Assembly (NCBI RefSeq): GCF_964355755.1
Contig: NC_092671.1
Coordinates: forward strand, 33,676,304-33,740,303
Source of the DNA: Antedon mediterranea
Lineage: Eukaryota > Animalia > Echinodermata
Length of the DNA stretch: 64,000 bases
Direction: 5' to 3'
Position 1 is the first letter of the stretch; every line of letters begins with the position of its first letter. The position numbers and the translations under genes are program-made. Positions 8,001-59,400 of this stretch are shown piece by piece. The notes below the pieces were generated by a model. It was given only the letters and a program-made list of their open reading frames with translations, was not told the origin of the DNA and did no database searches.

Positions 8001-11000
8001 GAAAACCCTTCATCAACCATAGAAGTAGCGGATATGATGGATCACCGATAATAAAAATCGGCACTTCCACATTCTCCATGTTAACAGTAGTCTGTTAAAT
8101 ATGTAAAAATAAGAAATAAGGTTTTTATTCTGTAAATTTATTCATGAATAATAATTTAATTTGCATACAACCTCCTCATCAGTCAGTATGCAGACATTTT
8201 CACTGATTTTCTTTTTAAAATGTGATGCTGTTAATAATGTCAGTTTTTAATTATGTTAACTGCTCGGGGATTTATTGTACATAAAACATAATCTGTTTCG
8301 ACCACTAACCCTAGGAAATAGCTGACCGTTTTGACCCTTTTCAAATAATGAAGAGTTCCTAAAAACTCTGGCATCATGTACCTTCCCAGGCCATCCAACA
8401 TATGTGTCTGTGAATCTGAAACCAAAAGGGTTATTACCAAAATAATTACACAATTAACAAATAGACTATGTTTAAAACAAAATACAATACTTGATTTGAT
8501 TAATAAGTTCAATTTTAATTTGAAACATCATAGTTACAAAAAAATGTATTGTTAGCCATGCAATAACACACACAGTACTGTAGTGCCAAGTTACCTTAAT
8601 TTATGATCTACTACTGCTTGTAGTATAACAGAGTAGTGGCCCTTGCGATTGAAGTAGTCAGCTTTTGACTCTTTAGGTGCAAGAATAGGGATGTGTGATC
8701 CGTCAATGGCACCTGCACATTGAGGAAAGCCATGCAGTTCATTGAAGCCTGCTACAGTAGTAGTCAAGCGATCTCCTACTGGCCAAACAATGTAGTCATC
8801 GTACATGAGGTCTACCACTGCCTGACACACTTGCTTTATGGATCTGGAGACAGTAGACCTGTGCACACCAAAGCGATTTCCAATTGTGCGAAGGTCGCAA
8901 CACGTTGAAAGTCTCCAAAGCGTCATGCCAACTACATGCTCTACGGTCATCCCATTACCAAAGTTTGTTGCTTCTCTTTGTAAACTTGGCCGCAGTATTC
9001 CACATAGAACAGTAAAAGTGTCTAAACAAAATTTTAAATAAGTTAATATTGTTTTTTATTTCATAAATCACCATTGTTGTAAGTACTGTAGTTCTCTAGC
9101 CCTTTCACTGATCCCACTAATCAACCAACTGATCATCCTAAACTAATAATAAAGCAACCCATCGTTTACGTAGCACTAGTAGCCACTGTGCAGTGCAGCA
9201 GTAGTAGTACTACTACTGTACCAAAGTAATTTTAGTAAGTAGTAGAAGACTCGGCATAGCCTAGAAAACATTTTTACAGGCTAGGCCTGCCTAAAAGCTA
9301 GTTTATTTATTAATATTTAGTTATGGGGTTAGAGGTTAATCCTCTAGAGCATGAGGCCCGGCCGCGATTTTTTTTTTCGTACATAAGTTGGGGACCCCCT
9401 CATGAAACGTCACAAAATAAACATGAATAATTCATAGTTAAATGTTCTTGTTCCGTGTGCACCCAAGCGTATAGCAACAAGAAGTGATTACACAAGTGCG
9501 GTACAATTCTAGGCCTATCTCCGCGCTGTTGTTGCGGCGTGCGATTTCATAGAAGAATAGCGGCGTTTTGTGTTGATTGTCGAAATAATCAGCCTTTAGT
9601 TTATGATAGTGTTTTTAATATAATTCATTACTAAAGAATTACGTGTTAAAATTATAGTTTCTATTAATACTATTAGGCCTATGCCTAATTATTAGTCTCT
9701 AAACATATGTCTATTCTAGTAGAGCTGTGTGTGTGTGTTATAGGTATGACACAATCCGAGTAATAAGTCAGCAAAATTAAACAATAAACATTACACAAAA
9801 ATACATTTTTTATTCTCGTGGGTCTAATCTAATCTAAACCCATCTCATGTGTTCATATACGCGCATTTTTAAAGTTCCTTTGAGTAGACCTACATGCATT
9901 GTTTGATAATAAAATAGCAGAATTAAAAACAAATACAGTACACAAATTATAAACATTCTTTATTCTTGTGGGTCTAAGCTTTCTTTGGGCTATGTCCAAT
10001 GAATTACTACTTAGTTTAATGTCTTTCCTAGCTGTCGATTAGCCTCGACTCGACACATTTTGTGTGAAGAAGAGTGCGCGAAGGCAATCGCGTAAATTGA
10101 CTTAGAATCCTAGGCCTACTGTAGAAAGTATCGTATCGCAGTTGTGTAATCGCTTCTTGTTGCTATACGCTTGGGTGCACACGGAACAACAAATTTAACT
10201 GATGAATTATTCATGTTTATTTTGTCACGTTTCATGAGGGGGTCCCCAACTTATGTACGAAAAAAAAAATCGCGGCCCGGCCGCCTACTATACTAGCTAG
10301 TACTACGAGTACGTACCCTACTTTACTTGACTTTCAGCCAAATTATTTAAGGCCTCTAATTGTTATAATCAACAATAATAATAAATATAAATAATAATAA
10401 TAATTACCTTTTGACATACGGACATTTTCTTTCCACAAATGGGCGGTGTAACGGTTGCAAACTGTTTCGTTCCACCAGTCTAAAGACACAATTGGGTTAC
10501 GAGGTCGCCTAGCCGCAATCAAAACTACGAAGTTTTTTGTTACGTCTACCATGTTTATCGTCGGGACATGTAACACATGTGAGACATCGAGAGTGGAAAT
10601 TCCTGAGTTACAGTGCGCACGCTCAGTATACTTAGGTCAAACACAGACTTCCTGTTCAAGAATGGCCGCTTGGGTAATAAAGATGAAATTTAACACGACC
10701 ACCCAAGAAGTATTTTTAGCAGAAACGGGGTACTAAAAAATACGGTATAAAAAATACCGTATTTTATACCGTATTTTTATACCGTATTTTGAGCAGTTGC
10801 AGCAGAAACAGGCCCTTACACATACAAAATAAAATTAATTCTTACACCACATAAGATATAACAAGATAATAATCATATTTAAAAACAAATCTCTTTCAGA
10901 TTATGACAGAATTCGTCGACAAGCACGTAAGTAAACTAAACGTTGATTTAACTGTGATAAAACGGCTTAAATATAAATTCGTGTTCATATTTTGTTATTT

Positions 11001-14000
11001 CTTTTGCTTTTTATTTCAGGAACGCCCTCTTGGGATGAAATGATAACTAATAGTAAGTAAAAAAGGTGGATGTCATACAAATATCTATAAAAATTGAAGG
11101 CCTACGGTGATTGTTATTCATATTTTGAAACAACTCTCTTTCAGATTATGACAGAGCTCGTCGATATGCCAGTGAGTAAATTAAAGTTAAGAGCATTATT
11201 TTGATAAAAAAGCATGTAATTAACTATTTGAAACTCTTCATATTTTGCTCTTTGTTTCAGGAACTCGTTATATCTTGAATGAAATCAATCTATAACAGTT
11301 ACTCATATTTTAAAACAAATCTCTTTCAGATTATGACAGATATCGTCGACAAGCACGTAAGTAAACTAAACATTGCTTCAACTGTGATAAAACGGCTTAA
11401 ATATAAATTCATGTTCATATTTTTTATTTATGTATGTATGTGTTTATTTATTTTTTTTATTTATTTTTCTCTTTATTTCAGGAACGCCCTCTTGGGATGA
11501 AATGATAACTAACAGTAAGTAAAAAAGATGGATGTCATACAATTTTCTATAAAAATTGAAAATTAAGTGTGACATAGTTCATATATAATTTTAATGTCAC
11601 CATCAGGATGATCTGGGTATTATGATGACATTTTATTTCTTTCAAAAATACAATCAGCAATAAATCGACATAAATCATGCCTCTTTACCATAAAATACAC
11701 AAACAAGATTAAATAGTTATTAATGCTTGGTTCGACCAAACAACAAGTTCCCAATCAAAACGCAACAGTTTAATTGTCGTTTAATATGTATCGGCTAATT
11801 ATCGATTAATAGTATTATTGGCTGAGGAAACACGGTGTAAACATAAACAGATATATTGATGGAACGTACAGTAAATAATATACAATACACATAATTAAAT
11901 GTAGGCCCGCCGTGATTGTTATTCATATTTTGAAACAACTCTATTTCAGATTATGACAGAGCTCGTCGATATGCACGTGAGTAAATTAAAGTTAAGAGCA
12001 TTATTTTGATAAACAGGCATGTAATTAATTAAACTATTTGAAACTGTTCATATTTTCCGCTTTGTTTCAGGAACTCGTTATATCTGGAATGACATCAATG
12101 ATGACAGTAAGTTACAAAGATGAATGCATTTTGTCAAACTTGATCGTGTTGAATGAATGTATCGATGATTTTACAACCCCAAGCCTTATACATTAATATG
12201 CTACAATCGATTATTTTACAAATACATTTGATTGCATATTGTGTCTTTTTCTTGTCTGCTGGATTTATTGTAGTTGGTAAAATTAACATGAATAAGACAA
12301 GCAACAGAACAAACAACAACGACCCAGAAATAGTTCTATAAAACTGAACAAGTAATGTAGGCCTACTTATAGGTCAAAGAAGTTGAAATTAAAGAAAAGA
12401 TTAAAGCATAATTATAATGATGAATGAAAATATTTATATCCATCTAGTCATTTCAAATTTTACTTGTTTAGTAAATAACGGAGTTTCACGATCATGTTGA
12501 TTAGATATCTTTTTAAAACGTTATACTACCTTGATAAATAAAAATATTCATATTTCTCTAGTAGCTAGATCAACTTTCGTATGCACTTTGAGGTCCAGAG
12601 AATTTGACTTCAGAAATTGGTTTAGGATGGTCAAACAATCATTATAGGCTTGGTTACACATTTTTAAAATGTGGCGAAAGGTCAAAAGGTCAGGGTGAAA
12701 GGTTAACAAACTAAACACCAATAGGTCCTTAAATCTCGACAACCACTGGTCACAGCGAGGTAATTTTGGTCTCAAATTGATCAGAAGGTATACATTTTAG
12801 TCAAAAATTACCGAAAATGCCATTTCTGACCTTTGACCCACAACCCTGGGCATCTATTTATCTCCATAACTACTGGTCGTAGACACTTGAATTTGGTTTT
12901 AAATTGTTCGAAATATATATTTTGTTATTTGTTAAACATTTTTAAAAATGTTACAAAAGGTCAAAGGGTCAGGGTCAAGGGTTATATGAACAAATAAATA
13001 AAGGTATTTGTATCTCGGCAACCACTGGTCGCAGCAAGTCAATTTTGGTTTCAAAATGTTCAGATGGCATACATTTATATTCCGTCTAATGGGGCATTTT
13101 AGTAAAAATGATCAGAAATGCCATTTCTGACCTTTGATCCACAGGGCATCTTCATATCTCTGTAAGTATTGGTCGTAGAAACTTAAATTTGGTATCAAAT
13201 TGTTCGAAATATACATATTTACATTCATTGTAATAGAAAATGTGGTAAAAAGATGAACAAAAAATAATATTACTAATGTTTCAAACAAAAACAAATCTCT
13301 ACTCAACTTATCCTTAAACAGTAATGTTATGCAATAACTGATACTTTAAATTGTTTCAATTTCAAGTACTAGTTATTGCTGTCCACGAGAACATTTTGAT
13401 ATAAACGTCAAGCTCAACAGTTCTTTACAGAATGCTAAAAGTAACTCGCCTTGTGTATCCGATTAAACGCCCCAAGCATTTATTGTTCAAAAGGGTTTTT
13501 AGGGGGAGGGGATGCATATTTATTTGGGGTATAATATTGTAACATGTATAATCAAATAAATACCACCTAGATGTATAAAACTACAGCACAATTAATATCA
13601 AAAAATGATAAAATTATGTCAAAATGCTTGGTAAATTGTAGATTATGGTAGTTAATGTGATACAATTATTTTGTAAATGCATGTGGCTGATCGTTTATCC
13701 CACATGGTGTCCTATTGGAGGAAATGGTGGCGTTTATTTGAGGGAGGCTTTTATCCAAAGCGGGTGTTAATTCGAATAAATACTCGAGCTCAACAGTTAA
13801 AAATGCTAGAAGTAACTTACCATAGTTAAACGGGCATTTATTTATTCAGGGAAGGCGTTTATTTTGTTTGGGTGTAGTAATGGTAACATGTATAATCAAA
13901 TAAATACACCCAAGATAAAAAAAAATAAATATAATAAGAATAATAACTGGATTAAACCTCATTCTATCCTTGTGCAAGTACAATCATGTAATAAAAGGTA

Positions 14001-15205
14001 TCAGAGACAACTATAGACCAATTCATTGTCATTATTCCGTATCCCTGTTACATAATATTTTTGAATGTTACCGACAAAACTTATACATAATATGTATAAG
14101 TTTTGTCGGTGTATATTATACACGTCTGTTCCCAGTGTAGATAATAAAACAATATATGTTTCTGGAGATTTATTATCAATACTATAGGGTAATGCGTTTA
14201 AGAGCTTCGGCTCATTGCATACCCGTTTTGTATCAAATAAGTTTATAGAAATATTCTTGTGAAAGAAATACTGTATTATTTTGTTGTTGATACAAATAAA
14301 TGGTACGTATATAGTACCGCGAATGATACCACTAGAAACTTTGACATGTTTTAGGTACTGAATGCATTGACAATAAAAGCATCAGAAGTTATCATGATAA
14401 ATTCATACTACAACAATGTACTACAGTACACAAGGGTGTTTTCAGGAAAGCTGGACATATTGTACAATAGTAATGAAACTATGTATTGGCATTTAAAAAT
14501 ATGCAAAAATTGTTGTCAAATTGTAGTCACAAACAAACAGATGATAGAATGAAGATCCATTATGAGTGCAATCGTGTCAGGATAATGATATGTCATTGTT
14601 TTATTTCATTATACTGGCACCTGGAGAAGATCCATTTAATGTTATCTATGACACTGTCACTATTCTAAAAGACAGAAACATTTCGTTAAAGAGCATAAAG
14701 AAGAAAACGAATCATGTAAAGTACCTTTTATCAGTTGAGAAACAAATTATAATTATTAAAATTAGAGTATTTATTCGAATTAACACCCGCAAATAACAAA
14801 ATGTTTATTTCAAACAATTTAAGACCAAATTCAATTGGTCAGTAGCATTTCCGGTAATTTTGACTAAAATTTCCCATTAGACTGAATATAAATGTATACC
14901 TTCTGATCAATTTGAAACAAAAATTACCTCACTGTGACCAGTGGTTGTTGAGATTTAAGGACCTATTTGTGTTTAGTTTGATAACCTTTCACCCTGACCT
15001 TTTGACATTTCGCCACATTTTCAAAATGTGTAACCAAGCCAATAATGATTGTTTGATCATCCTAAACCAATTTCTGAAGTCAAATTCTCTGGACCTGAAA
15101 GTGCATATACGAAAGTTAATCTACCTACTAGAGTATATATCCATTGTGTCAATTCAAATGTTTCATGCTTTCTCTATTTTAGGTGGTATCGGAGAAGAAC
15201 CTTAA
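2067..15205 (+). CDS. Gene A1, paralog of A2 (ATG and signal exons expected upstream of the window). Exons 2067-2120, 10900-10926, 11020-11052, 11145-11171, [11261-11295 donor-less, stop], 11330-11356, 11482-11514, 11950-11976, 12071-12106, 15183-15205
   Basis: Same splice signals and exon sizes as A2 (54,27,33,27,27,33,27,36 nt). Translation ...APSPPHPPAVWNYGTTENYDRIRRQARTPSWDEMITNNYDRARRYANYDRYRRQARTPSWDEMITNNYDRARRYARTRYIWNDINDDSGIGEEP*. AATAAA near 15419. Confidence 0.8.
2703..3998 (+). mobile_element. Helitron family 1, complete copy. Partial copies adjoin at 2152-2701 and ~4000-4510
   Basis: a|TCTATATATAAATTTACGTAAGGGC ... CCATCTAG|t, colinear with 54432-55708. Confidence 0.88.
4841..7051 (+). 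CDS. Harbinger Myb/SANT (trihelix-type) DNA-binding protein, ~514 aa. Exons 4841-5180, 5377-5448, 5683-5823, 6060-7051
   Basis: MWTEEVT..LWGE..IYKEIS..QVNTKLKTLRKQY..CPHYEVLDRILG is a Myb/SANT-like signature. It is followed by an acidic linker, RKRKK, a coiled-coil-like stretch and a TSTP-repeat tail. GT-AG introns keep the frame. Confidence 0.88.
6427..7020 (+). repeat. 18-bp coding minisatellite (CACTAGTACACCAGCTCG / CACTAGTACACCACATTA variants)
   Basis: About 30 tandem units encoding TSTPAR/TSTPHY/TSIPAP in the last exon of the Myb-like gene. Confidence 0.92.
7678..10552 (-). CDS. Harbinger (HARBI1-like) DDE transposase, ~363 aa. Exons 10552-10408, 9021-8595, 8415-8310, 8091-7678
   Basis: Motifs RMSKDTF..LC, LWRLST, GFPQCAGAIDGSHIPI, YFNRKGHYS..LQAVVD, GWPGKVHDARVF, IGDPSYPL, VVKRAFGLLKGRWR, ACCILHNFC. 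The spliced frame is open. Confidence 0.92.
9356..10283. mobile_element. MITE-like non-autonomous element nested in transposase intron 1
   Basis: ~140-bp inverted repeats: GCCGCGATTTTTTTTTTCGTACATAAGTTGGGGACCCCCTCATGAAACGT.. and its reverse complement at ~10145-10276. Exact ends and TSD not resolved. Confidence 0.8.
12553..15137. mobile_element. Non-autonomous TIR element with ~250-bp TIRs and a TA duplication, in the last intron of A1
   Basis: Ends CTCTAGTAGCTAGATCAACTTTCGTAT.. / ..ATACGAAAGTTAATCTACCTACTAGAG. Absent from A2 (attca-TA-tccatt at ~50970). Confidence 0.82.
14070..14110. repeat. Perfect palindrome with 20-bp arms
   Basis: ACCGACAAAACTTATACATA-A-TATGTATAAGTTTTGTCGGT. Confidence 0.85.
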
Positions 15206-20285: not shown

Positions 20286-23200
20286 TTAGTTTACTCCTTT
20301 AGGAGGTAGGCCTGCTGAAAGAAAATGGAAATTGTTTTAAAAGTTAATATCATTTTAACATGCGTATACAATACCAACTATAATAACTACGTTATGCGAA
20401 ATCTTATTCCCATGTGATATTATGCTGTTCGCACTGTTATGCCTTATAAAAATTACATGATAGGCCTGATTGTCATATAAACAACACCATTAATAGGATT
20501 ATTACCGATTAAATCGCTTTACACACAATATTGTATTTAAAGATATTTTTAGGAAGCACTTCTTTAATTTGTTTCCTGTTTTCAAATGATATATTATCAG
20601 CATTCAATCAGAAACAGATACATTTGGCTTCTTGTTAAAAGGCATTGATATTATGTGAAATGATATTTTTTATTGTTATAAGAGAATATTAGGGATTACC
20701 GGGAAAAAAAGTTGAGCAGGGTTCAATTATACCAAACGCTGGTTTGCAACGAAGGCGTACTGCCATACCTCGGGTAGGTTTATTATTAGGTTCAATTATA
20801 CCAGACGCTGGTTTTCAACGAAGGCGTACTGTAATACCTTGGGTAGGTTTATTACTGGGTTCAATTATACCAAACGCTGGTTTGCAATGAAGGCGTACTG
20901 CCATACCTCGAGTAGGTTTATTATTGGGTTCAATATACCAACGTTGGTTTGCAACGAAGGCGTACTGCCATACCTCGGGTAAGTTTATTATTGGGTTCAA
21001 TATACCAAACGCTGGTTTGCAACGAAGGCGTACTGCCATACCTTGGGTAGGTTTATTATTGGGTTCAATATACAAAACGCTGGTTTGCAACGAAGGCGTA
21101 CTGCCATACCTCGGGTAGGTTTATTATTGGGTTCAATATACCAACGTTGGTTTGCAACGAAGGCGTACTGCCATACCTCGGGTAGGTTTATTATTGGGTT
21201 CAATATACAAAACGCTGGTTTGCAACGAAGGCCTACTGCCATACCTCGGGTAGGTTTATTATTGGGTTCAATATACAAAACGCTGGTTTGCAACGAAGGC
21301 GTACTGCCATACCTCGGGTAGGTTTATTATTGGGTTGAATTATACCAAACGCTGGTTTGTGACGAAGGCGTACTGCCATACCTCGGGTAGGTTTATTATT
21401 GGGTTCAATTATACCAAACGCTGGTTTGTGACGAAGGCGTACTGCCATACCTCGGGTAGGTTTATTATTGGGTTCAATATACCAAACGCTGATTTGAAAC
21501 GAAGGCGTACTGTCATACCTTGGGTAGGTTTATTACTGGGTTCAATTATACCAAACGCTGGTTTGCAACGAAGGCGTACTGCCATACCTCGGGTAGGTTT
21601 ATTATTGGGTTCAATTATACCAAACGCTGGTTTGCAACGAAGGCGTACTGCGATACCTCGGGTAGGTTTATTATTTGGTTCAATTATACCAAACGCTGGT
21701 TTGCAACGAAGGCGTACTGCCATACCTCGGGTAGGTTTATTATTGGGTTCAATTATACCAAACGCTGGTTTGCAACGAAGGCGCACTGCCATACCTCGGG
21801 TAGGTTTATTATTGGGTTCAATTATACCAAACGCTGGTTTGCAAGGAAGGCGTACTGCCATACCTCGGGTAGGTTTATTACTGGGTTCAATTATACCAAA
21901 CGCTGGTTTGTGACGAAGGCGTACTGCCATACCTCGGGTAGCTTTATTATTGAGTTAAATTATACCAAACGCTGGTTTGCAACGAAGGCGTACTGCCATA
22001 ACTCGGGTAGGTTTATTATTGGGTTCAATTATACCAAACACTGGTTTGCAACGAAGGCGTACTGCCATACCTCGGGTAGGTTTATTATTGGGTTCAATTA
22101 TACCAAACGCTGGTTTGCAACGAAGGCGTACTGCCATACCTCGGGTAGGTTTATTACTGGGTTCAATTATACCAAACGCTGGTTTGTGACGAAGGCGTAC
22201 TGCCATACCTCGGGTAGGTTTATTATTGGGTTCAATATACAAAACGCTGGTTTGCAACGAAGGCGTACTGCCATACCTCGGGTAGGTTTATTATTGGGTT
22301 CAATATACCAACGTTGGTTTGCAACGAAGGCGTACTGCCATACCTCGGGTAGGTTTATTATTGGGTTCAATATACAAAACGCTGGTTTGCAACGAAGGCG
22401 TACTGCCATACCTCGGGTAGGTTTATTATTGGGTTGAATTATACCAAACGCTGGTTTGTGACGAAGGCGTACTGCCATACCTCGGGTAGGTTTATTATTG
22501 GGTTCAATTATACCAAACGCTTGTTTGTGACGAAGGCGTACTGCCATACCTCGGGTAGGTTTATTATTGGGTTCAATATACCAAACGCTGATTTGAAACG
22601 AAGGCGTACTGTCATACCTCGGGTAGGTTTATTACTGGGTTCAATTATACCAAACGCTGGTTTGCAACGAAGGCGTACTGCCATACCTCGGGTAGGTTTA
22701 TTATTGGGTTCAATTATACCAAACGCTGGTTTGCAACGAAGGCGTACTGCGATACCTCGGGTAGGTTTATTATTTGGTTCAATTATACCAAACGCTGGTT
22801 TGCAACGAAGGCGTACTGCCATACCTCGGGTAGGTTTATTATTGGGTTCAATTATACCAAACGCTGGTTTGCAACGAAGGCGCACTGCCATACCTCGGGT
22901 AGGTTTATTATTGGGTTCAATTATACCAAACGCTGGTTTGCAACGAAGGCGTACTGCCATACCTCGGGTAGGTTTATTACTGGGTTCAATTATACCAAAC
23001 GCTGGTTTGTGACGAAGGCGTACTGCCATACCTCGGGTAGGTTTATTATTGGGTTCAATTATATCAAACGCTGGTTTGCAACGAAGGCGTACTGCCATAC
23101 ATTGGGTAGGTTTATTATTTGGATTTTAATTTGACTTATTGTACAGTTGTAACTTACCTTCAGTGTTTATTTTCTTAGGAGGTCCTGAAACAATTAAACA

Positions 23201-38806: not shown

Positions 38807-38859
<53 letters not shown>

Positions 38860-40452: not shown

Positions 40453-41330
40453 GTTGCAACGATTTTATCTCTTATTGCATACTTATAGCGTTTATCTTTT
40501 TATGTAAATCCACAAGTAATTATATGAAAAAAATAATGTGTTTGTATTTGGTGTTACCTAACCCGAGGAGGTATACTGATTCGATATATGAATTATAAAC
40601 ATTTGTATTGCATTACCAATTTTCAAACGTCTGTCGTTATTTCTGATTACCACTTTTTCGTTGAACTCCATAAAAATGCATAAAAAAACATTAATCAAGT
40701 AAAATAAATAATAAATAACTAAGCGAAATAAAAGCAAAACCTACACGTTCAGAAACAAACGATTCATATAATACTACTGTATTTCTAGTAGGCCTATGTC
40801 TAATTATATTCAGATTACGGAAGAATTTAATAACGCTTATTAAAAAAAATATATTTTAAGTGTTCATATGTTTTCTGATCTTATGAAGAAAGCCCAGTTG
40901 ATTTTAAAGATGTTAAGTAACATAAAATAAAACCATTACTATTAAAACTGAAAAACAAGTACAATAGGCATAATATTGAACTATTCATATTGTTATTGTT
41001 ACTTTGATTTACTGCGTTTCAGACCGTGAGAGAATCCGTCGGCAAACATGTGTGTAATTTAACTAAACTTGTTATTTAGATAAAACCAGACGAAATATAA
41101 CGTTTCAAAGTATTCATGTATTCTGTTCGGCTCTTTGTTTCACTTTCTAAAAAAAAGTAGATTAGATTAATTGATGAAAATAAAACCATGTTATTATTGG
41201 TATAAAAAAAAGAGAAAACGTCATGTGTTAAACCTTTGAAAATGGTAACCATCATTTTATTAAACAGTTTTATTGCGTCGATTTAATGGTTTTTAGGGTA
41301 GATAACAGATTGATTAAAATAGTATAAGTT

Positions 41331-44400: not shown

Positions 44401-45082
44401 ATTTATTAATATACAATACATATTTATAATATAAACACTAAATAAATTAATACACGTTATGCCAGGATTTACAACATCATCTATTACTAGTATATAAATT
44501 TACGTAAGGGCAAAATTCGGTAAATCGCGCGTTACTTCTAGAATCTTTACTCGATGGTATATAAAGTTGGTTCGACTTTCGGTACTGCTTTTAACCACCC
44601 GATGTAACACTTTTTACTAATTAAATTGAGTTAGATAATTAGTTATTGACAATTAAAATGAATTTAGGTTCAAAGATTTGCAACAAATACGGTATAGGTG
44701 TTTTCCGATCGTGTTATACACTGTCTAATGATGTCCATCTTAAAATTACCCTCACACACAATAATACGAGAATGCTTCGTATTTACCTATATTTTTCTAC
44801 GATAATTGTTTTTAATAACAAACAGCTCGAGTACAGCATCATAATGTTACATTTATTCTTTAAAAATACTATTTTGATAGATTTAATTTTTTTTTTAAAT
44901 TTTGTAGTTTATACAAATGTATTGATTTGCGATGAATGGAACATTCAAATATCTCAGTCTCAATATAATTATTTGGTTTAACACAAGTAGGTAAATTCAT
45001 GGGTCTAAGGATAAACTTGAAACCTTTAGATATAGTATTGCAATAGAATCGCAAATTTCTTACTGTGAGTGTGGGTACTGTT

Positions 45083-45160
<78 letters not shown>

Positions 45161-48100
45161 AGTATCTCTTCTGAAATCCCGCTTCGTGATACTGAATAGA
45201 TAAGGGCGTATAAATTTGATCTCTGGTGCGCGTGCGTACAATTGAGGGACTAGTGCAGCTGTTCCGCCATACCACGCCGGGAATGTTAAAGAATCGCTAT
45301 CCAATCGAGTTTTAACAATAACATGAAAGCATCAGTGGTCTAATGGTTAGGACAGCTGCATATCAAGCAGACGGTCCGAGTTCGAATCTCGTTTGGGGTG
45401 GCTTTTTTTCTCATTCTAACAGATTTCCTCATCTTTATCGTTTCAAATTAATTAATTAAATTTCAGAATATCACCAGGCGGTTCAGAATTAATGTTCTTT
45501 GCTTGATGTGTCTCACACACTTCTCATAGATCATTTTGGTCCATTCCTTTCTGTTGGTTGTCCAGGTAAAACGTGGAATACTTCTGCCTCTTTTCCCGTC
45601 TATTTTACCATCTAGTAGTCCCCTTTGAAGACTTTCCTTCCTTATGATATGACCAAAAAAATATAGCTTTCTTTTCTTGATGGTTGTAATAAAGGCCTGG
45701 CATCAGAAAAGCGGCGCAGAGTCGCAACCCGAACTTTTGAGATATTTAGCCTTGAAGTTCATCAGAATGTGAAAAAACGGCCTAACCTATCAATTTAAAA
45801 ATTTCAATAAAAAACGATACTATAAACACTTATCTTTAACATATCAAACTCTCTCTATCAAAATATCACAAGTATGTGTATTTTGCAATTATTTATGTCG
45901 TTTCTATTGAAAATGATTAGGAAATTTTCGTTTTGTTCACTCAAAAATCAACTTTCTTTACGGCGCTTTTGTAAACAAACCGCTAACCCAAATCACGTCA
46001 TGTTTGGTACCTATCTGTTCGAAAATATAATAAGCTACCATCATTTTTAACAACCTATGGGATTTTTTTTATCTAGTCAGAATTTGTGAATCCTTGACTG
46101 TGATTGGCTATAGAAATAAATTACGCTCTCTTATTGGCTGACGCTTTTGTTTATGATGAAAAAGCATGGCTTCCATCGTAGTTTCTCGAATGATCGTTTC
46201 AACATATTTTTGAATATTTAGGAAGTTAATCGTTATTTTTATCCATATATTTTTAAAAAGAACAAAAAATATAATATTATGTTCCGCACAGTGATATATT
46301 TTCGACTAGTTTGCCGTTATTGAGAAGAAAATAGCGCAGTTTGGACAGAGAGTCTTGTCGCGTTGATCGGCGGGCTTGGCTAGGCCAAGCTAATCGGCGT
46401 CGGTACTTCATTGTTTATTTTCTCAAAATGAAGATTTCCTGAGCTAGAAAGTGACTCGTATGTTTTCATTAATACCTCTTCATATAATAAACCAATTTTA
46501 ATAAACAACGGCTTATTTTAAAGATTATTAAATATAGATTACGAATATATAAAAATAAAATATTAATTCCGACACTATGCCGATTTTGTGATGCCATGCC
46601 TCTTATATAAAACACAAATTGGGTTGTTTAAATGGGTACAAATGTGACTCATTTTGTGACAAGTTTCTCTTTCAGAAGTAATTCCCAGGGTGCTAATTTT
46701 AGTTAACTACATAAATCATAGTGTCTATTTATTCGTTTCTGTAAACGACAATGTTTTATAGTACTGGGGTACGTACATAAAAAAAAACATTTTTGTTTTA
46801 CACTGGAATTACTGTTTATTCGAGAACTATCTGTGGGCACGACCAAAGCGAGCGTACCATCTAGTTAAGTATGACTGTATAAAATGAGAATATATATTAT
46901 AATAGTTTCAAACAAAAGCCTACTTCCTTCACAAAAAGTCTTCTCTAAATGATCCATACATCATATTTCATAAAATACAAATCATTATTTTCAAAGTATT
47001 CATATTTTGCTGTGCTGTTTTTTTTTCAGAAGCTCCTCCTCCACCTCCTCCACCTGCTGTATGGAATTATGGAACGACTGAAAGTAAGTCAGATGGTAGT
47101 AATAATTAGAATAATAATATAAAGTCAAACAATCGTTATATATATATTCACGCCGAGAATGTTAAAGAGTCGTTATCCAATCGAGTTCGAACAATACCAT
47201 GAAAGCCCCAGTGGTCTAATGGTTAGGACATCTGCATATCAAGCAGGCGGTCCGAGTTCGAGTCTCGGTTGGAGCGACTTTTTCTCATTCTCACAGATTT
47301 CCTCATCTTTATCGTTTCAAATTAATTAATTAAAGTTCAGTATATCACCGGGCGGTTTGGAATTAATGTTCTTTGCCTCTTGTGTTTATTTATATATACT
47401 TAAACATACGAAATAAATTAATTCTTAAACCTCATAAGATAACAGTAAATCATATTTTAAAACAAATCTCTTTCAGATTATGACAGAATTCGTCGACAAG
47501 CACGTAAGTAAACTAAACGTTGCTTCAACTGTGATAAAACGGCTTATATTTTTTATGTATGTATGTATGTATTTATTAGGTGATCATTTAGAATAAAATG
47601 ATCACCTATTGTTATTGTATGAAATCTTTATTATTTTTCTTTTTTTTTTCTTTTTATTGTTTCTGTACACTATTATCTCAAAAATTTAATGTCAATGATT
47701 ACCAAAATTTCAGAATATCTTTCAAATAATATAACTTAATCCTAATCAGCTTTCCAGCGTGATCACTTATCCGTGACGTCATTTATACGCCATTTTGTGA
47801 AATCACATTACCAATCATATCTCCATAATTCATTATGACATATTAATGAAATTCACTACAGGTAAACTTCAGGTCAAGGGTAAAAATATTAGCAAATAAA
47901 AAGTTGCGCGTTTCAAGGTCATGCACGTGAAATCGCGCGTTAAAAATTTAAAACGCGCAAAATTAGGTTTTGATCAATTTAGAGCATGAATTAGGCCATT
48001 TGCGCGTTTCAAAAAATTACTGCGCAAAATGCGTTTTTGTGCGCACGATTCTTAAAATGCGTAAAAAATAAAATTTGATGTATAAATCACATTCTACTCA

Positions 48101-51045
48101 CAATCCTTAGTACATTCACCAATTTTGAGTCCATTCCGACCTAAAATAACGCTATACGAGCACGTTAAAAATGACAAAATGCGCACACTAATTGTACAAA
48201 AGTGCTAAAAATGGTAAAAAATAAGGACTTTTTAAAATGAATATAACTCTTCAGAATGGCAGATGACCCCCAATTTTTTTAACTTATTATGGAAGCCAAT
48301 AAGTTGTAGATACAAATGTATATACACATTAGACGTACAAAATGGTATGACGTCATCAAATGGCCACTTGAATTTAAAAATTAGGAATTTTTATCTTTTT
48401 GTGTGGGTTATCACATTCAATAGAGCGCATCTCCGTTATTTGAGCCCGATTTTCGCACAACTTTTAGTATGTGCTTGCTCAATTAATGTTTCTTCTAATG
48501 AGTGGTCAACATTTTTATTTTGATGACGTCATCACGCGTAAAAACTTGAATAACCTAGGTCGTGTAATTTCAGCTACACCATACATTTGAATATCTTATA
48601 GCTCTTCAGAATTAAAGGTGACCTTGAAGATTATAACTTATTATGAAAGCTGATGAAATGTAGATATGAATTCATATTAAAATTAAGCCTATCGGATGTT
48701 GTGATGTTATCATATGGCCAGTTGAAGTTAAAAAGTAGTTTTTAAATTTCTTTAGTCAAAGTTATACAAATTTCAAAGACCGCGCATTGCGCTTCTACGT
48801 GTCAAATTTTCTTCCAATCCTTATATTTTTTTGCTCAATTCATTATCTTACTGTATATTGTTTATGGCATATAATAGGCACAACTCAACACTATAAGCAT
48901 ATAATAGGATGGAATGTATCATCATTTTCCGATCGTATGATAACGTACGTGCATGTTTAAAACAAATTATTTTCAGTAATTAATTAATTAATGTCAATAA
49001 AATGATAATAATGATCACCTATAATTCGTCAAAGTGACGAATTAAATTCTAGTTTTTTTATTTATTTTGCTCTTTTTTTCAGAAACTCCCTCTTGGGATG
49101 AAATGATAACAAATAGTAAGTAAAAAAATGGATGTAAAAAAATTATCTATAAAAATTGAACATTAAGTGTGACAGAGTTCATAATTTTAATGTCACCATC
49201 AGGATGATCTGGGTATTATGATGACATTTTATTTCTTTAAAAAATACAAACAGCAATAAATCGACAAAAAACATGCCTAAATATGCATGCATAAAATACA
49301 CAAACAAGATTAAATAGTTATTAATGTTTGGTTCGACCAAACAACAAGTTCCCAATCAAAACGCAAGAGTTTGATTGTCGGTTAATATGTATCGGCTAAT
49401 TATCGATTAATAGTATTATTGGCTGAGGAAACACGGTGTAAACATAAACAGATATATTGATGGAACGTACAGTAAATAATATACAATACACATAATTAAA
49501 TGTAGGCCTACCATGATTGTTATTCATATTTTAAAACAACTCTCTTTCAGATTATGACAGAGCCCGTCGATATGCCAGTGAGTAAATTAAAGTTAAGAGC
49601 ATTATTTTGATAAAAAAGCATGTAATTAACTATTTGAAACTGTTCATATTTTGCTCTTTGTTTCAGGAACTCGTTATATCTGGAATGACATCAATCTATA
49701 ACAGTTAATCATATTTTAAAACAAATCTCTTTCAGATTATGACAGATATCGTCGACAAGCACGTAAGTAAACTAAACGTTGCTTCAACTGTGATGAAATG
49801 GCTTATATTAAATTCGTGTTCATATTTTTTTATTTATGTATGTATGTATTTATTTTTTTATTTATTTTGCTCTTTTTTCAGGAACTCCCTCTTGGGATGA
49901 AATGATAAATAATAGTAAGTAAAAAAGATGGATGTCAAACAATTATCTATAACAATTAAAAATTAAGTGTGACATAGTTCATATATAATTTTAATGTCAC
50001 CATCAGGATGATCTGAGTATTAGGGTGACATTTTATTTCTTATTACAATCAGCAATAAATCGACATAAAGCATGCCTCTTTACCATAAAATACACAAACA
50101 AGATTAAATAGTTATTAATGATTGGTTCAACCAAACAACAAGTTCCCAATCAAAACGCAACAATTTGATTGTCGGTTAATATGTATCGGCTAATTATCGG
50201 TTAATATTATTATTGGTTGAGGAAACACGGTGTAAACATAAACAGATATATTGATGGAACGTACAGTAAATAATATACAATACACATAATTAAATGTAGG
50301 CCTACCATGATTGTTATTCATATTTTGAAACAACTCTTTTTCAGATTATGACAGAGCTCGTCGATATGCACGTGAGTAAATTAAAGTTAAGAGCATTATT
50401 TTGATAAACAAGCATGTAATTAATAAACTGTTTGAAACTGTTCATATTTTGCTCTTTGTTTCAGGAACTCGTTATATCTGGAATGACATCAATGTTGACA
50501 GTAAGTTACAAAGATGAATGCATATTGTCAAACTTGATCGTTTTTAATCAATATATCGATGACCTTACAACCCCACGCCTTATACATTAATATGCTACAA
50601 TCGATTATTTTTCTAAATGGTGCATTGATTGCATCTTGTGTCTTTTTCTTGTCTGCTGGTTTTATTGTAGTTGGTAAAATTAACATGAATAAGACAAGCA
50701 ACAGAACAAACAACAACGACCAAGAATAGTTCTATAAAACTGAACAAGTAATGTACTTATAGGTCAAAGAAGTTGAAATTTAAAAAAAAATTAAAGCATA
50801 ATTTAATGATGAATGAAAATATTCATATCTATCTAGTCAATTCAAATTTTACTTGTTTAGTAAACAACGGAGTTTCACGACCGGTCCAAGTCACTGTTAA
50901 CTAAACAAGGAAGTCATGTTGATTAGATATCTTTTTAAAACGTTATACTACCTTGATAAATGAAAATATTCATATCCATTGTGTCAATTGAAATGTTATT
51001 TGTCATGCTTTCTCTATTTTAGGTGGTATCGGAGAAGAGCCTTAA
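41407..51045 (+). CDS. Gene A2: micro-exon gene for a secreted multi-peptide precursor, ~114 aa. Coding exons 41407-41420, 44186-44229, 47030-47083, 47477-47503, 49083-49115, 49551-49577, [49667-49701 donor-less, stop-containing], 49736-49762, 49882-49914, 50345-50371, 50465-50500, 51023-51045
   Basis: Internal exons have ttcag/ttacag/tttag acceptors and gtaagt/gtgagt donors, and phases join in frame. Translation: MSTKLGLLVLFLVVFVQCA-KAPPPPPPPAVWNYGTTENYDRIRR-QAQTPSWDEMITNNYDRARR-YANYDRYRR-QARTPSWDEMINNNYDRARR-YARTRYIWNDINVDSGIGEEP*. Hydrophobic N-terminus and four RxRR sites. The last exon differs from A1 by a synonymous GAA/GAG, supporting the frame. Confidence 0.85.
41474..42906 (+). mobile_element. 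Helitron family 1 copy with a tandemly duplicated 3' end, in intron 1 of A2
   Basis: TC start and CTAG end. The ~140-bp 3' segment occurs twice (~42615-42755 and ~42756-42906). Confidence 0.88.
43015..43125. repeat. Long imperfect hairpin, probably the end of a non-autonomous DNA element
   Basis: AATGGTACAAATTATGG..GGTGAATG..GAAAGGTT / AACCTTTTCATCATTCACC..CCATTATTTGTACCATT. Confidence 0.55.
45086..45157. repeat. (TA)n microsatellite. Others at ~33343-33382 and ~38810-38853
   Basis: Directly visible. Confidence 0.95.
45329..45400 (+). pseudogene. tRNA-derived (ATC loop, Asp-like) head of a dispersed repeat spanning ~45270-45505. Second copy 47205-47276 within ~47150-47390
   Basis: TGGTCTAATGGTTAGGAC A-box region, CTGC-ATATCAA-GCAG arm, GAGTTCGAATCTC B box and a T-run terminator. 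The two copies share flanks on both sides. Confidence 0.65.
45505..45690 (-). mobile_element. RTE-clade LINE 3' fragment
   Basis: Minus strand translates as IKKRKLYFFGHIIRKESLQRGLLDGKIDGKRGRSIPRFTWTTNRKEWT, typical of the RTE ORF C-terminus. Confidence 0.7.
45693..46601. mobile_element. Non-autonomous TIR element, possibly Kolobok-like. Related degraded copy at ~29450-30100
   Basis: Imperfect 23-bp TIR AGGCCTGGCATCAGAAAAGCGGC / GCCGATTTTGTGATGCCATGCCT. Internal blocks (GGCGCTTTTGTAAACAAACC..CGTCATGTTTGGTACCT) are shared with ~29680. Confidence 0.6.
47574..49052 (+). mobile_element. Helentron/DINE-1-like non-autonomous element in an A2 intron
   Basis: 5' TAGGTGATCAT..ATGATCACCTA hairpin, a 3' ATGATCACCTA sub-terminal repeat, then stem-loop AATTCGTCA-AAG-TGACGAATT and CTAG, in a T-rich site. 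Absent from the short equivalent intron of A1. Confidence 0.75.
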
Positions 51046-53449: not shown

Positions 53450-56400
53450 TTAGTTTACTCCTTTAGGAGGTAGGCCTACTGAAAGAAAATGGAAATTGTT
53501 TTAAAAGTTAATATCATTTTAACATGCGTATACAATATCAACTATAATAACTACGTTATGCGAAATCTTATTCCCATGTGATATTATGTTGTTTGCACTG
53601 TTATGCCTTATACAAATTACATGATAGGCCTGATTGTCATTATAAACAACACCATTAATAGGATTATTACTGATTAAATCGCTTTACACACAATATTGTA
53701 TTTTAAGATATTTTTAGGATGCACTTCTTTAATTTTGTTTCCTGTTTTCAAATGATATATTATCAGCATTCAATCAGAAACAGATACATTTGGCTTCTTG
53801 TTAAAAGGCATTGATATAATATGAAATGATATTTTTTATTGTTATAAGGGGATATTAGGGATTACCGGGAAAAAAAGTTGAGCAGGGTTCAATTATAACA
53901 AACGCTGGTTTGCAACGAAGGCGTACTGCCATACCTCGGGTAGGTTTATTATTTGGTTCAATTATTCCAGACGCTGGTTTGCAACGAAGGCGTACTGTCA
54001 TACCTCGGATAGGTTTATTACTGGGTTCAATTATACCAAACGCTGGTTTCCAACGACGGCTTACTGCCATACCTCGGGTAGGTTTATTATTGGGTTCAAT
54101 ATACCAACGCTGGTTTGCAACGAAGGCGTACTGCCATACCTCGGGTAAGTTTATTATTGGGTTCAATTATACCAACCGCTGATTTGCAACGAAGGCGTAC
54201 TGCTATACCTTGGGTAGGTTTATTATTGGGTTCAATTATACCAAACGCTGGTTTGCAACGAAGGCGTACTGCCATACCTCGGGTAGATTTATTATTGGGT
54301 TCAATTAAACCAAACGCTGGTTTGTGACGAAGGCGTACTGCATACCTCAGGTAGGTTTGTTATTGGGTTCAATTATACCAAACGCTGGTTTGTGACGAAG
54401 GCGTACTGCCATACCTCGGGTAGGATTATTATCTATATATAAATTTACGTAAGGGAAAAATTCGGTAAACCGCGCCTTACTTCTAGAATTTTTACTCGAT
54501 GGTATATAAAGTTGGTTCGTACTTTCGGTACTGATTTTAACAACCTGATGTAACCCTGTATACTAATTAAATTAAGTTAGATAATTAGTTATTGACGATT
54601 AAAACGATTTGCCCCAAATAGGGGTGTTTTCTGATCGTGGTATAAACTGTCTAATGGATGTCCATCTTGAAAAATACTCGCCACAAAAATGCGAGGAGGC
54701 TTCGCATTTTCCTATCTCCTCCTACGATAATTGTTTTTAATAGCTGAAAACCAGTTGAACAGCTAGAGTGCAGCATCATAATGTTGAAGACAGGCCGATT
54801 TTCTTTAAAAAATACTATTTTGATAGATTTAATATACGATTATACAAATGTATTGATTTGCGATGAATGGAACGTCCCAATCTCTCAGTCTGCCAGAGTT
54901 TGGTTTAACACAAGTAGGTAAATTTATGAGCCCTTGGTTTAACACATACGGTAGATAAATATATGGGCCCTTTGAGAATAAACTTGCAATACTTTGACAA
55001 TACTGTAAATACCTATTAACTATTTTTGGTCCTCATTTGAATCGAGCATTTCCTAAATGCTCATACTATTAGATGTAATATAAAAATATATACAAATAAA
55101 CTTTATTACTGAGATTGTGGATAGGCTCTACTGTTAGATATACAACTTTATACTGACAGTTCCTTCTCAACGTTTGTATTAATTAATAATTACCAAAAAT
55201 AAAACGTCGTAGTGGTGTATCGTGACATGTACTTTAATATTTCAATCGAATATGAAAGTGACAGTTTTAACAAAGTATTAAATCGCAAATGTTTTACTGT
55301 ATTTAGAGGTATATTATTTATAGGCCCAAAAAACATGAAAAAATATTTCGTTACTGAGTGGATAAAGAATATATTTAAAAATTGTTCCTCTTTGTACCTA
55401 TCCGTTTTCCCATCCCTCAAACCTAATGTTACATACAAAACACAAATTGGGTTCTTTAAATGAGTCAAAATAAAAAATTTGGACTCATTTTGTGATAAGT
55501 TTCTCCTTCGGAAGTAATTCCCAGTGTGCTAATTTTAGTTGACTACATAAATCATCGTGTCTATTTATTCGTTTCTGTAAACGACAATGTATTATATAAT
55601 AGTACATTTGAAATCGCCAGTTTTGCTACGCGGAAATTACTGTGTATTCGAGAACCATCTGTGGGCACGACCTAGATGGTACGCGAGCGAAGCGAGCGTA
55701 CCATCTAGTTGGGTTCAATTATACCAAACGCTGGTTTGTGACGAAGGCGTACTGCCATACCTCGGGTAGGTTTATTATTGGGTTCAATTATATCTAACGC
55801 TGGTTTGCAACGAAGGCGTACTGCCATACCTCGGGTAGGTTTTTTATTGGGATTTTAATTTGACTTATTGTACAGTTGTAACTTACCTTCAGTGTTTATT
55901 TTCTTAGGAGGTCCTGAAACAATTAAACAAAAACATAGGAACATTTTGAAATTGATATTCATGTTAACATTTGGATAAGTTATTAGGTTTGCAGGTTTGG
56001 TTATCAAATGCTATCTACTTTTTAACTGGTTTATTATCCCGACGATCTGTTTTATAATCTGAAAAGGAATCAGTAATTAAGTATTTTACATTAGTATTGA
56101 TTGTAGTTGAACATGGTGCATACGACTTTCATAATTACGGTTGAATTGTGTTTTGGCTTTTTAAAAAAAATTTAGATATTTTGATTTATGTAACATATCC
56201 TTTTAAGAGTTTCTTCTATCTTGTGGACATATTTCAGTTTGGTTTTTATTACTTACTTTCAGCGTTTATTTCGATAATAGAAGACTCTGTAACAAAGATT
56301 AGAAGGAAACATGAAGAATACATTGTCATTTTCAACATTAATTATCAAATCCCCTTTTATTTCAACATCTAGAAGGATATTTTGGATTAAAAAAGAAGTT

Positions 56401-59400
56401 ATCAACCTTTTCCTAATACAGGATGTGCGAATACGGGATGATCGATACACACAATTGGTGCTGACCAGGGTTCAATTAGACAAAAGGCTGATTAGCGCTG
56501 AGGGCGTATCCATACTTCGTTTCGGTGTAGGTTTTTTTCTCACACGTCTGTAGAGCGCTTAGATGTTTCACGACATCAAAGAAATTAGCATGCATTAAAC
56601 TTTTAGAATGTTAAAGCGGCAGAAGAAAACTATAAAATGTGCATACTTATTTCCCCACATGTAAGTAAGGTCGTAATATTGATTACGCCTATAATTATAA
56701 AATACTAGAGGGTGAGCTCGCTTCGCTTGCTCCCCCTCTAGAGGAAGTGTAGACGATGGTTTTCGGAATAATATGGAATGACACGGGTAAACATGTTTTA
56801 AAAGGACGTTCTCCTTGTACGTTTTCTGTCGGTTACCATTATTGAAAATGCTTGACAGATCGTAAAACTAAACCTGTCTTAGATGATTAATAATATTTTA
56901 AAGTGTAGTGTTTATTGTTTGGTAGGGCCATTATAGGTTGGAGGTGTGGAGGCGGAGATCATTTTTTAGGTAGGTGCATATTCGAGGGATATGTTTAATT
57001 TTGTGTTTTAATAATATGGTAACATTATTTTATAATCAAATAAAATCCTCTAATAGATATGAAAAGTGGTAAAAAGAATAACAGATGCTTGGTAAATTGT
57101 AGATAACAGTGAGATGAATTCTACTACAAAAAGTATAATTGTGTTATTATAAATATAATACTTTATTGTTGTGTATTATAAATGAGGATATGCGTTTATT
57201 ATTCAAATTGATTTTTTTAGGAGACGCGTTTATTCAAATAAATACCGTCCTACTAATTAATACTTTATTTAATTTAAACATCTTTTGAAATTAACTTCTG
57301 CGACAAAGTGGGCCGTTTCAGCCCAGGAAAGAAGACATTTTAGACATCCTGGTACTAACGGGACACAGATAGCTTACAGTTATTCCTGCCAGCTTACTCA
57401 ATAAAACTCGGCTATCGGGATTTCACTCGATTTAAAAAAAATCAAATCTCCCTATGTAAACTATTAATACTATTCCCCAAAATATATTTCGATGCTTTAT
57501 GGCGTATATTTAATTTTATCTTTATCAATTTGCAGTATAATTTTTATTTTTTAACTACTGTACCTTCGCACGCGTGGTCCGGTCCTAAAATAAACAAAAA
57601 CATCTAAAATGGCTATAGCCTATGACTATATAACGACCAACTTAGTTGAAACCAGGTTGTTGCAAAGTGAACTCATTGTGAACCCGGAAATTACTTTGAC
57701 CACGTAGAATTTAAATTGAGTTGAAAATCTACCGTTGAAATCATAAATTTTGTTAAAAAACTCTTTATAATATGTTTCTAAGATAGAAATATGGAACAAT
57801 ATCGTAATAGTAAAATCCATTGTTGTCAAATTTAGATTTCAAGGTACATCTGAGATAGATCAGGTAGGCATCCAAGGCAGAGATTTGTACCGAAGTTTTT
57901 TTTATGCTCGTCTAATTTATGTCAGAATTAACCATAATTTATATATAGATTATGATTATTAAAATAATAAAATAGAATAATATAGTATACTCTCACCTTC
58001 TTCACCTCGACGAACTCTGTCATGAACTGAAATAACATAACATATTAAAAATGGGTGATTGATAGCAAGGAATATTGCATTAAAACATTGAATGTTAGTG
58101 TTTGTGTTAAACAGAGGTGAAGTTTATGCTTAAGATTGATTCCATTGTGTTTTTGAATTCATTATTCACTGTGTAAACGTAATATGTGGTCCCCTACCGG
58201 TATCGTTTATATTATAGTAATGTGTATTAAATTTGCGAATAAATATAATTATTACTGTACATTGAACATAAAAAGAAATATATAATACATAATTATATTA
58301 CATGGTATTAAAATGTTGAAAATCATAAATTATCAAAGCAATGATTATCCGCTATCATCGTATTTATTTTATTTTATGAATACTGTTATTCCATTATGAG
58401 GTTCTGAAACAGATCAGACAAAAGGCATGAACACTTTGAAATTTATATTCATGTAACAGATAAGTTGATGTTTGTAACCGTGTTTATCAAAATGTGTTAT
58501 CTACATCTAGTTTAGGTCAACATCTTGAAGGTTTTGTTTAATCCAAAAAGCAATTCACCAAAGTAGCCTACTAATGTAAGAATGTATGCCTATGGTTATA
58601 ATGAACATGGTACACAGACAATGCAAATGGTTGTATTTTTGTTCGAATTAAGTTCACGTACCGTGCGGTACGGTAATTAGTTCTACCTAACAGAAAAGTG
58701 ACGATGCGTAAAGATAATAAATTTAATGATAAAGTGATGATAATTAATGTTTCTAATTTGTCTCGTGTCGTCTCTATATAAATTTCTTTCTGAAGGAAGG
58801 CAGACGGCAGGTAGGCCTAGTTTGAATTATACACAAAATATCTAGGCCTAGGCCCATATTGAAGAAATAATTCAGAGTAGGTGTTAAACTTCTTCTATCG
58901 GTTGCATTAAATATAGGTACACTTTTGTTATTTATTCTAACTAAACATCTACAATGGCCAACGTGGAAAACAAAGAGCCAAATATTTCTAATTTAAATAT
59001 TAGCGCCGCTGAACCGAACACCTGGCTGTCGACTCTCATCAAGTCAATCATGGGCTGCAAAACCATTGCTGATATTATATCTACATTATGCGACGCAGTC
59101 ACCAAGATTGTCTCCTTGGAAAAAGACATTACCACCCTCAATCTTGAAATCACCGGTTTACAAAAAGAACTGAGGAATTTGCACGCCGATATGCAGGAAA
59201 ATTCTGATTTCATGGATGTTAAGCTGAAGGATATTGCCGAGGATACGCAGCAATCCACTACGGAATGCATAGAAGAGATACGTGACAAAATTGACAACCT
59301 AGAAGGACGTCAACGCCGTAACAATCTGATGTTTACTGGCATACCCGAACAAGCGGAGGATAGTGAAGGTACTGTTAATTTCCTTTCCTCATTTATCTCC

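Follow-up and report, generated by a model that had tools for sequence, protein, structure and literature searches.

In the honey-bee apidaecin gene, which encodes a multi-peptide precursor, a conserved N-terminus is followed by repeated exons in variable copy number; each repeated exon is one complete unit of 28 amino acids (aa), and splice variation has been proposed as a diversifier (PMC1847501). Baramicin A from Drosophila (PMC8423362) and hymenoptaecin from ants (PMC3415428) have a signal peptide followed by tandem related peptides between Arg-x-Arg-Arg (RxRR) or Arg-Arg sites. Baramicin A is cut at RXRR (PMC8423362). The hymenoptaecin repeats lie in one exon, and according to the authors, splice variation is excluded (PMC3415428). 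A furin site can also be carried by a small exon: exon 6B of human ApoER2/LRP8 (exon 7B in mouse) is a 13-aa in-frame cassette micro-exon that adds little but the site, and both its regulated inclusion and the cleavage have been shown (PMC7410921, PMC11293713). Schistosome micro-exon genes (MEGs) encode secreted proteins from 10–20 very short exons, mostly multiples of 3 nucleotides (nt), and are hard to annotate (10.1101/2023.06.21.545858). Here, we describe a gene family in a stretch of 64,000 nt of AT-rich animal DNA from the crinoid Antedon mediterranea (contig NC_092671.1; hereafter, the window), in which the RxRR site is repeatedly encoded by a short exon of its own, the RxRR exon.

The window holds five genes of this family, of three types: A1 (+ strand, partial), B1 (-), C (-), A2 (+), and B2 (-, partial). 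Internally, they are built from repeated cassettes of an RxRR exon plus a peptide exon, so that two exon classes of 27–57 nt alternate. We think that this is probably a crinoid gene family, arranged in tandem, that encodes precursors of multiple peptides; the precursors are predicted to be secreted, and a furin-type proprotein convertase likely cuts them at the RxRR sites. What carries this reading is the exon structure with its phase symmetry, the descent of the three types from a common ancestor, the constraint on the Arg codons, the duplication of cassettes, and the permanent loss of individual cut-site exons.

In the crinoid genes, unlike in apidaecin, two exons make up one unit and the cut site has an exon to itself; we found no sequence relation. 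Indeed, the crinoid family has two exons per repeat unit, versus one or less in the apidaecin, hymenoptaecin, and Baramicin genes as described in the available texts, and by this measure it does not belong with them. The predicted type C products are glycine-rich, as are the products of hymenoptaecin (PMC3415428). However, antimicrobial activity and immune induction have been shown for Baramicin and hymenoptaecin, whereas the crinoid family is known from its sequence and its predicted products are neutral to acidic. The ApoER2 exon resembles the crinoid exons, which are symmetric and 27–33 nt long, but it is present in a single copy in a membrane receptor, while the crinoid exon occurs in 17 copies in a small family of predicted secreted precursors. 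The crinoid genes resemble the MEGs in having many short in-frame exons in a gene for a predicted secreted protein. The MEGs are described as specific to the Schistosomatidae, and the crinoid genes differ in alternating two classes of exons, one of which is a cut site. The words “furin” and “cleav” are absent from the available text on MEGs (10.1101/2023.06.21.545858), and no homology to MEG proteins was found with Pfam or phmmer. Also, neuropeptide precursors PCNP1–20 have been predicted in this same species, with signal peptides and basic cleavage sites; no peptide described in the available text matches our family, and a motif search of seven text supplement files did not find the family's motifs (PMC9793003).

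Each ingredient (a furin-site cassette exon, exon-per-peptide precursors, and micro-exon genes) has precedent, but we did not find the combination in the open-licence PMC and bioRxiv literature. Nor did that literature turn up any account of this family or of cut-site exons that stand alone and are repeated, although most subscription papers lie outside that collection. Speract and asterosap, which activate sperm, come from precursors with tandem copies that are expressed in the ovary. The available text of PMC9265791 does not give a precursor structure for either one.

We also looked for homologs outside Antedon mediterranea and found none in Pfam, with phmmer, in PDB, in metagenome contigs, or in the ESM Atlas. 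There was no Pfam family at E ≤ 1, and phmmer against 1.84 billion representatives returned only the protein itself and three weak matches, which look like unrelated repeat proteins (chance). PDB gave one match (E = 0.65), none of 484 pattern matches in metagenome contigs was confirmed, and the ESM Atlas gave only glycine-rich leads below 0.9. The best reading of the sequences is an undescribed and lineage-restricted family of convertase-cleaved multi-peptide precursors.

A first-pass annotation of this stretch had listed 13 RxRR exons, and all 13 were where it had placed them, with the sequences it had reported: eight of type A (+ strand), two of type B (-), and three of type C (-). Each is 27, 30, or 33 nt long, lies between an AG acceptor and a GT donor, and runs from phase 1 to phase 1. 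As the annotation had claimed, the three Arg are invariant in 13/13 exons while x varies (I, A, Y, or V). Most of the donors match the consensus GT(A/G)AGT. The 13 exons are:

10900..10926, + strand: RxRR exon A1a, 27 nt
11145..11171, + strand: RxRR exon A1b, 27 nt
11330..11356, + strand: RxRR exon A1c, 27 nt
11950..11976, + strand: RxRR exon A1d, 27 nt
47477..47503, + strand: RxRR exon A2a, 27 nt
49551..49577, + strand: RxRR exon A2b, 27 nt
49736..49762, + strand: RxRR exon A2c, 27 nt
50345..50371, + strand: RxRR exon A2d, 27 nt
25155..25184, - strand: RxRR exon B1, 30 nt; weak donor GTGATG
57997..58026, - strand: RxRR exon B2, 30 nt
37058..37090, - strand: RxRR exon C1, 33 nt; in XP_071943192.1
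36096..36128, - strand: RxRR exon C2, 33 nt; in XP_071943192.1
32886..32915, - strand: RxRR exon C3, 30 nt; in XP_071943192.1

The annotation had also proposed a search pattern for such exons. Across the window, this pattern gives 12 matches, compared to 0.005 on average (and never more than 1) over 200 dinucleotide shuffles, but it misses both of the 33-nt C exons. One of the matches is an exon that had not been listed, which we call the orphan. Together with three dead copies, this makes four newly found exons and a total of 17 copies, of which 13 are in coding context. The four are:

41023..41049, + strand: orphan RxRR exon, upstream of the A2 start codon; weak donor; encodes R-I-R-R
38053..38082, - strand: dead RxRR exon of gene C; acceptor AG->AC; first Arg->Lys and last Arg->Trp; absent from XP_071943192.1
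23306..23330, - strand: dead RxRR exon of B1; donor GT->AT (by alignment); first Arg gone; 1-nt insertion and a stop
56035..56058, - strand: dead RxRR exon of B2; donor GT->AT (by alignment); first Arg gone

The acceptor of the peptide exon that follows the orphan is mutated. We considered joining the orphan to gene A2 and rejected this, as the junction gives a stop and the exon lies upstream of the start codon. An acceptor-only profile scan of the window found no further RxRR-like exon, but it also missed the dead ones, so the ascertainment bias stays.

The start exons of A2 and C agree at 13/14 nt plus the donor (2 matches in the window, versus 0.03 expected). The signal exons of types B and C align (z score of 6.2; 46% identity in amino acids), and at the DNA level that of A2 aligns with each of the two; BLASTP gave no alignment of the A2 and B1 signal exons (14 versus 24 aa). 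The terminal exons and untranslated regions do not align across types (z of -0.5 to 1.7). The common start and signal exons show that the three types belong to one family of paralogues, as judged from these alignments.

The annotation's proposal that the RxRR exons are homologous across types is borne out. Among six intact representatives, with the orphan counted as type A, 10 of the 11 cross-type pairs align at the DNA level with z of 3.3–9.5 versus shuffles; the eleventh has a z of 2.0. Because the three types are paralogues, the RxRR exon was most simply inherited from a common ancestral gene, rather than shuffled between unrelated genes, and we saw no case within the window of an RxRR exon moving alone into an unrelated gene. 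Both the upstream and downstream introns of the RxRR exons mostly fail to align across types. Within types, the downstream introns do align (z of 3.9–21), and so do the introns around the C peptide exons. The duplicated unit is therefore the RxRR exon plus its intron plus the peptide exon. The annotation's description of the cleavage site as its own reusable exon was overstated: it is a separate exon and it has been copied, but along with the downstream intron and the peptide exon, and within one family.

In type A, the duplicated unit is a block of two cassettes, and the junction destroyed one peptide exon with an in-frame stop:

11261..11297, + strand: dead peptide exon of A1 at the tandem-duplication junction; in-frame stop and no proper donor
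49667..49703, + strand: dead peptide exon of A2, at the same junction as in A1

Skipping of this dead exon would leave two RxRR exons side by side. There are further relics of decayed peptide exons at 31728–31745 (-) in gene C and at 25540–25566 (-) in gene B, with flanking-intron homology (z up to 15.9). On a larger scale, A1 and B1 are a block duplicate of A2 and B2, with 91–96% identity.

Within the RxRR exon, the first Arg starts 8–14 nt from the beginning, and 7–10 nt remain past the last Arg. Because the predicted scissile bond lies inside the exon, the borders of the exons do not match the borders of the products. The annotation had claimed that the exon boundaries match the processing units, and this is not supported: the predicted cut is in mid-exon, and each internal product would span three exons, starting with 2–3 residues from one RxRR exon, continuing with a body encoded by the peptide exon, and ending within the RxRR exon that comes next.

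All of the internal exons are phase 1–1, and none of the 96 possible skip junctions gives a stop (0/96), so skipping is compatible with the reading frame. It also follows that duplicating a cassette would add one product, and that inactivating one RxRR exon would join two products while keeping the frame. The losses that we observed are all permanent, via splice-site mutation. Among the matches listed for reads mapped to B1 and the 3′ end of C, we saw no transcripts that skip an intact RxRR exon. The modularity demonstrably acts over evolutionary time; regulated skipping is possible.

The annotation had proposed selection on the RxRR site, a claim that would fall if the Arg codons were no more conserved than intron. 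We found them to be more conserved than both the flanking intron and the neighboring codons. Across nine duplicate pairs of RxRR exons, 7/255 nt differ (2.7%), as compared to 95/1053 nt of flanking intron (9.0%; Fisher p = 4e-4), and the codon changes are three synonymous and one non-synonymous. In a parsimony analysis of nine distinct RxRR exons on an assumed tree, there were no changes at positions 1–2 of the Arg codons and three synonymous changes at position 3, versus 11 changes at positions 1–2 of the x, +1, and +2 codons. Also, at least one Arg was lost in 3/3 dead copies (from two lineages), while none was lost in 14/14 copies with AG/GT intact. The dead copies are a less biased control for the constraint than exons that were found by their motif. 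Calculated by hand, the chance of this pattern is 1 in 21 if the orphan is counted as live or 3 in 21 if it is counted as dead. Overall, the Arg codons look selected. We dropped an argument from the retention of CpG in CGN codons, as the observed/expected ratio of CpG is 0.98.

The three complete genes have a common plan. The start exon ends in phase 2, and the signal exon leads from phase 2 to phase 1; symmetric phase-1 exons follow, and the last exon is short. There are 7–11 coding exons per gene, with sizes of 11–86 nt. The genes are:

30944..39598, - strand: gene C, complete; 10 coding exons, 130 aa; the chain is XP_071943192.1 (P0021); start exon 39598–39585, signal exon 38235–38150, peptide exons 37842–37804, 36851–36807, 35890–35846, and 32687–32631, three RxRR exons, terminal exon from 30954
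41407..51045, + strand: gene A2, predicted complete; 11 coding exons, 114 aa; open frame and canonical splice sites; start exon 41407–41420, signal exon 44186–44229, peptide exons 47030–47083, 49083–49115, 49882–49914, and 50465–50500, four RxRR exons, terminal exon 51023–51045
20286..26976, - strand: gene B1, predicted complete; 80 aa without a doubtful 21-nt exon (24741–24721); open frame and canonical splice sites; start exon 26976–26960, signal exon 26522–26449, peptide-type exons 26308–26273, 23558–23529, and 23184–23158, one RxRR exon, terminal exon 20314–20286
2067..15205, + strand: gene A1, 5′ end beyond the window; duplicate of A2 (91% over 1.5 kilobases, kb); peptide exons 2067–2120, 11020–11052, 11482–11514, and 12071–12106, four RxRR exons, terminal exon 15183–15205
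53450..63874, - strand: gene B2, 5′ end beyond the window; duplicate of B1, with blocks 93–96% identical to it

When we used the type-C signal exon as a database query, the one candidate was XP_071943192.1, an uncharacterized 130-aa protein from Antedon mediterranea. The translation of our predicted ten-exon chain is identical to it, residue for residue; its gene model keeps the three RxRR exons of gene C separate and omits the dead one. RefSeq models are usually built with support from RNA sequencing. An A-type exon compared to database proteins of 71–2000 aa gave one candidate, and none at E ≤ 10. Two readings of the exons were set aside: the 21-nt candidate B exon (24721–24741) sits in a high-copy repeat, and the C peptide exons are not alternative terminal exons, since XP_071943192.1 uses their donors.

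Gene C has a second isoform, X1 (XP_071943191.1; P0022), and the two isoforms differ by alternative 3′ ends. The 3′ units of X1, of which two are RxRR units and apparently adjacent, are not encoded in the window, which implies at least one more family gene nearby. We infer that these units come from a C-like paralogue to the left of the window, as block duplication would predict, and X1 may be a chimeric model that includes this neighbor. Genes C (39598, -) and A2 (41407, +) lie in head-to-head orientation. Their start codons are separated by 1.8 kb and their start exons are nearly identical; this layout suggests an inverted duplication and possibly a common promoter.

As for RNA evidence, a search of sequencing runs with an A2 stretch listed four DNA runs of one sample and no RNA run, which says nothing about expression. 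A further run, X5, was taken in by its species label (with a share of 0.00 for this A2 stretch) and mapped to B1 and the 3′ end of C. One X5 contig of 422 nt (depth 97.6) matches 30955–30676 on the - strand, starting with letter 144 of the contig. This match begins where we predict the acceptor of the terminal exon of gene C, and letters 1–143 do not match the intron, which is the pattern expected of a spliced transcript. In addition, X5 covers a variant of the B-type signal exon (depth 43.9), with four differences that are found in a DNA contig as well, and has a depth of 0 in three intron bins.

In A2, B1, and C, the maximum of Kyte-Doolittle hydropathy over 9 residues is 3.4–3.8, at residues 8–11. 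This hydrophobic N-terminal core, a measure of hydropathy only, suggests that the precursors are likely secreted. They have four RxRR sites in A2 (ending at residues 44, 64, 73, and 93), three in C, and only one in B1. With a signal peptide as judged by hydropathy, repeated basic sites, and purifying selection on Arg (subject to the ascertainment bias), the genes show three features expected of convertase-cleaved precursors. After secretion, a furin-type convertase would cut after RxRR. Carboxypeptidases trim basic residues after such cuts, and dipeptidyl trimming can follow. A carboxypeptidase would thus remove the last two Arg and leave x as the C-terminal residue of the product, and starts of Gln-Ala or Tyr-Ala might be trimmed by a dipeptidyl peptidase. 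The predicted products are 18–31 aa, cysteine-free, and neutral to acidic (net charge of -3 to +1), plus a 7-aa piece in type A. There is no Gly before the basic sites, so we predict no amidation.

For the function of these peptides, an extracellular signal or a defence effector is most likely. Lineage restriction and tandem amplification would fit either role, and the weak positive charge counts against a classical cationic antibiotic. Roughly, we favor a signal or pheromone, with defence somewhat less probable, and a neuropeptide or an adhesive or structural role each about half as probable as defence.

Several observations weigh against this interpretation as convertase-cleaved precursors. 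Conservation of the whole exon is not special to the cut site: across nine pairs of peptide exons, 12/327 nt differ versus 151/1055 nt of intron, with five synonymous and six non-synonymous changes. The tree for the parsimony analysis was an assumed one, the duplicate pairs are not independent, and the intact RxRR exons were found by their motif, which inflates the significance of the constraint. The orphan still encodes R-I-R-R although it has no coding surroundings within the window, which counts against our reading unless it became an orphan only recently. The first Arg codon does not vary even by synonymous changes, and splicing signals could be the reason. Cross-type homology of the exons is based on 27–33 nt and the gene architecture, as the introns do not align, and the gene models for types A and B are predictions of this analysis. 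Finally, that X5 is RNA is only a guess, the run comes from another study, the contigs in it are ~90–95% identical (a paralogue or an allele), and among the matches listed for B1 and the 3′ end of C, no X5 contig joins across an RxRR exon.

Some of these observations would be explained if RxRR were kept for another reason, such as an exonic splicing enhancer that a micro-exon needs or a basic binding patch in an uncut, repetitive secreted protein (of mucus, adhesive, or matrix). The invariance of the first Arg codon at all three positions and the orphan's motif would fit this, as would predicted products that are neither cationic nor amidated. Also, the only look-alikes in the Atlas are plant glycine-rich proteins at 0.79, a score that shuffled proteins often reach. 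But the Arg codons have three synonymous and no non-synonymous changes, which points to selection on the protein, and the spacing of R-x-R-R behind a signal peptide exactly matches the cut sites of Baramicin A (PMC8423362), so we consider a non-convertase role to be improbable. Even less probable, and already largely refuted, is that very recent duplication, together with the picking of exons by motif, has produced the conservation as an artefact, in genes that are largely decaying copies. The duplicated blocks are indeed 91–96% identical, there are many dead exons and transposon insertions, and the ascertainment bias is real. Nevertheless, the exons align across types where the introns no longer do, the divergence of exons is one third of that of introns, and the three complete models are open frames, one of them annotated and with putative-RNA support from X5.

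A different possibility, the strong form of what the annotation had proposed, accepts the cleavage and adds regulation: if inclusion of each RxRR exon were regulated, then one gene would yield differently cut precursors and a combinatorial set of peptides. The family would be a splicing-programmable polyprotein, in five or more linked genes, with cells deciding at the level of RNA which peptides to release one by one and which to leave joined. The regulated 13-aa furin exon of ApoER2 is a precedent for a single site (PMC7410921, PMC11293713). The phase symmetry and the absence of stops at the skip junctions would allow it, the RxRR exon of B1 has a weak donor, and gene C has two database isoforms, of which X1 appears to set two RxRR units side by side. 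On the other hand, these isoforms differ at 3′ ends outside the window and may reflect a chimera with a neighboring paralogue, and in neither of them is an RxRR unit missing from between two peptide units. The donors of the RxRR exons are mostly consensus, and phase symmetry is a precondition for cassette duplication too, so it needs no splicing explanation. We think that regulated inclusion is unlikely, and we prefer convertase-cleaved precursors whose cut sites would be gained and lost exon by exon in evolution.

The introns of these genes and the space between them contain many other elements. An apparently complete PIF/Harbinger transposon (4531–10818) with 20-nt terminal inverted arms lies in an intron of A1; it has a Myb/SANT gene (+), a DDE transposase (-) that is closest to proteins from Anneissia japonica (57%), and a nested element with a 166-nt inverted repeat (9345–10292). 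Between A1 and B1, inverted arms of 160 nt (92%) that are ~1.5 kb apart (16777–18601) probably mark a DNA transposon of the non-autonomous kind. An intron of gene C contains six copies of tRNA-Thr(TGT) (33375–35584) in 367-nt units, two on the - strand and four on the + strand, that are over 99% identical. Two tRNA-derived copies that resemble short interspersed elements (45273–45511 and 47149–47385; tRNA-Asp(ATC) according to ARAGORN) lie in introns of A2, after the signal exon and after the first peptide exon. In B2, an intron contains a long interspersed element (58900–63580) that is absent from B1; its ORF1 (285 aa), endonuclease, and reverse transcriptase are encoded in different frames. 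The last intron of the type B genes has a 69-nt satellite, at 20719–23119 in B1 (35 copies) and at 53885–54432 and 55709–55851; in B2 it is broken by a 1.3-kb interspersed repeat, which is also present near 2700–4000 and 41470–42900.

This analysis defines an uncharacterized family of predicted crinoid secreted peptides, with exact predicted products. In these genes, the putative processing site is an independent evolutionary unit: copying a cassette would add a peptide, and a single mutation in a splice site would delete a cut while keeping the frame. The copying or loss of exons likely changes the number of secreted peptides per precursor. If skipping is regulated, then this would be a clear case of splicing controlling the processing of a multi-site precursor, and if the precursors are programmable by splicing, then the family would provide a repertoire of combinations of secreted peptides, for signaling or defence.

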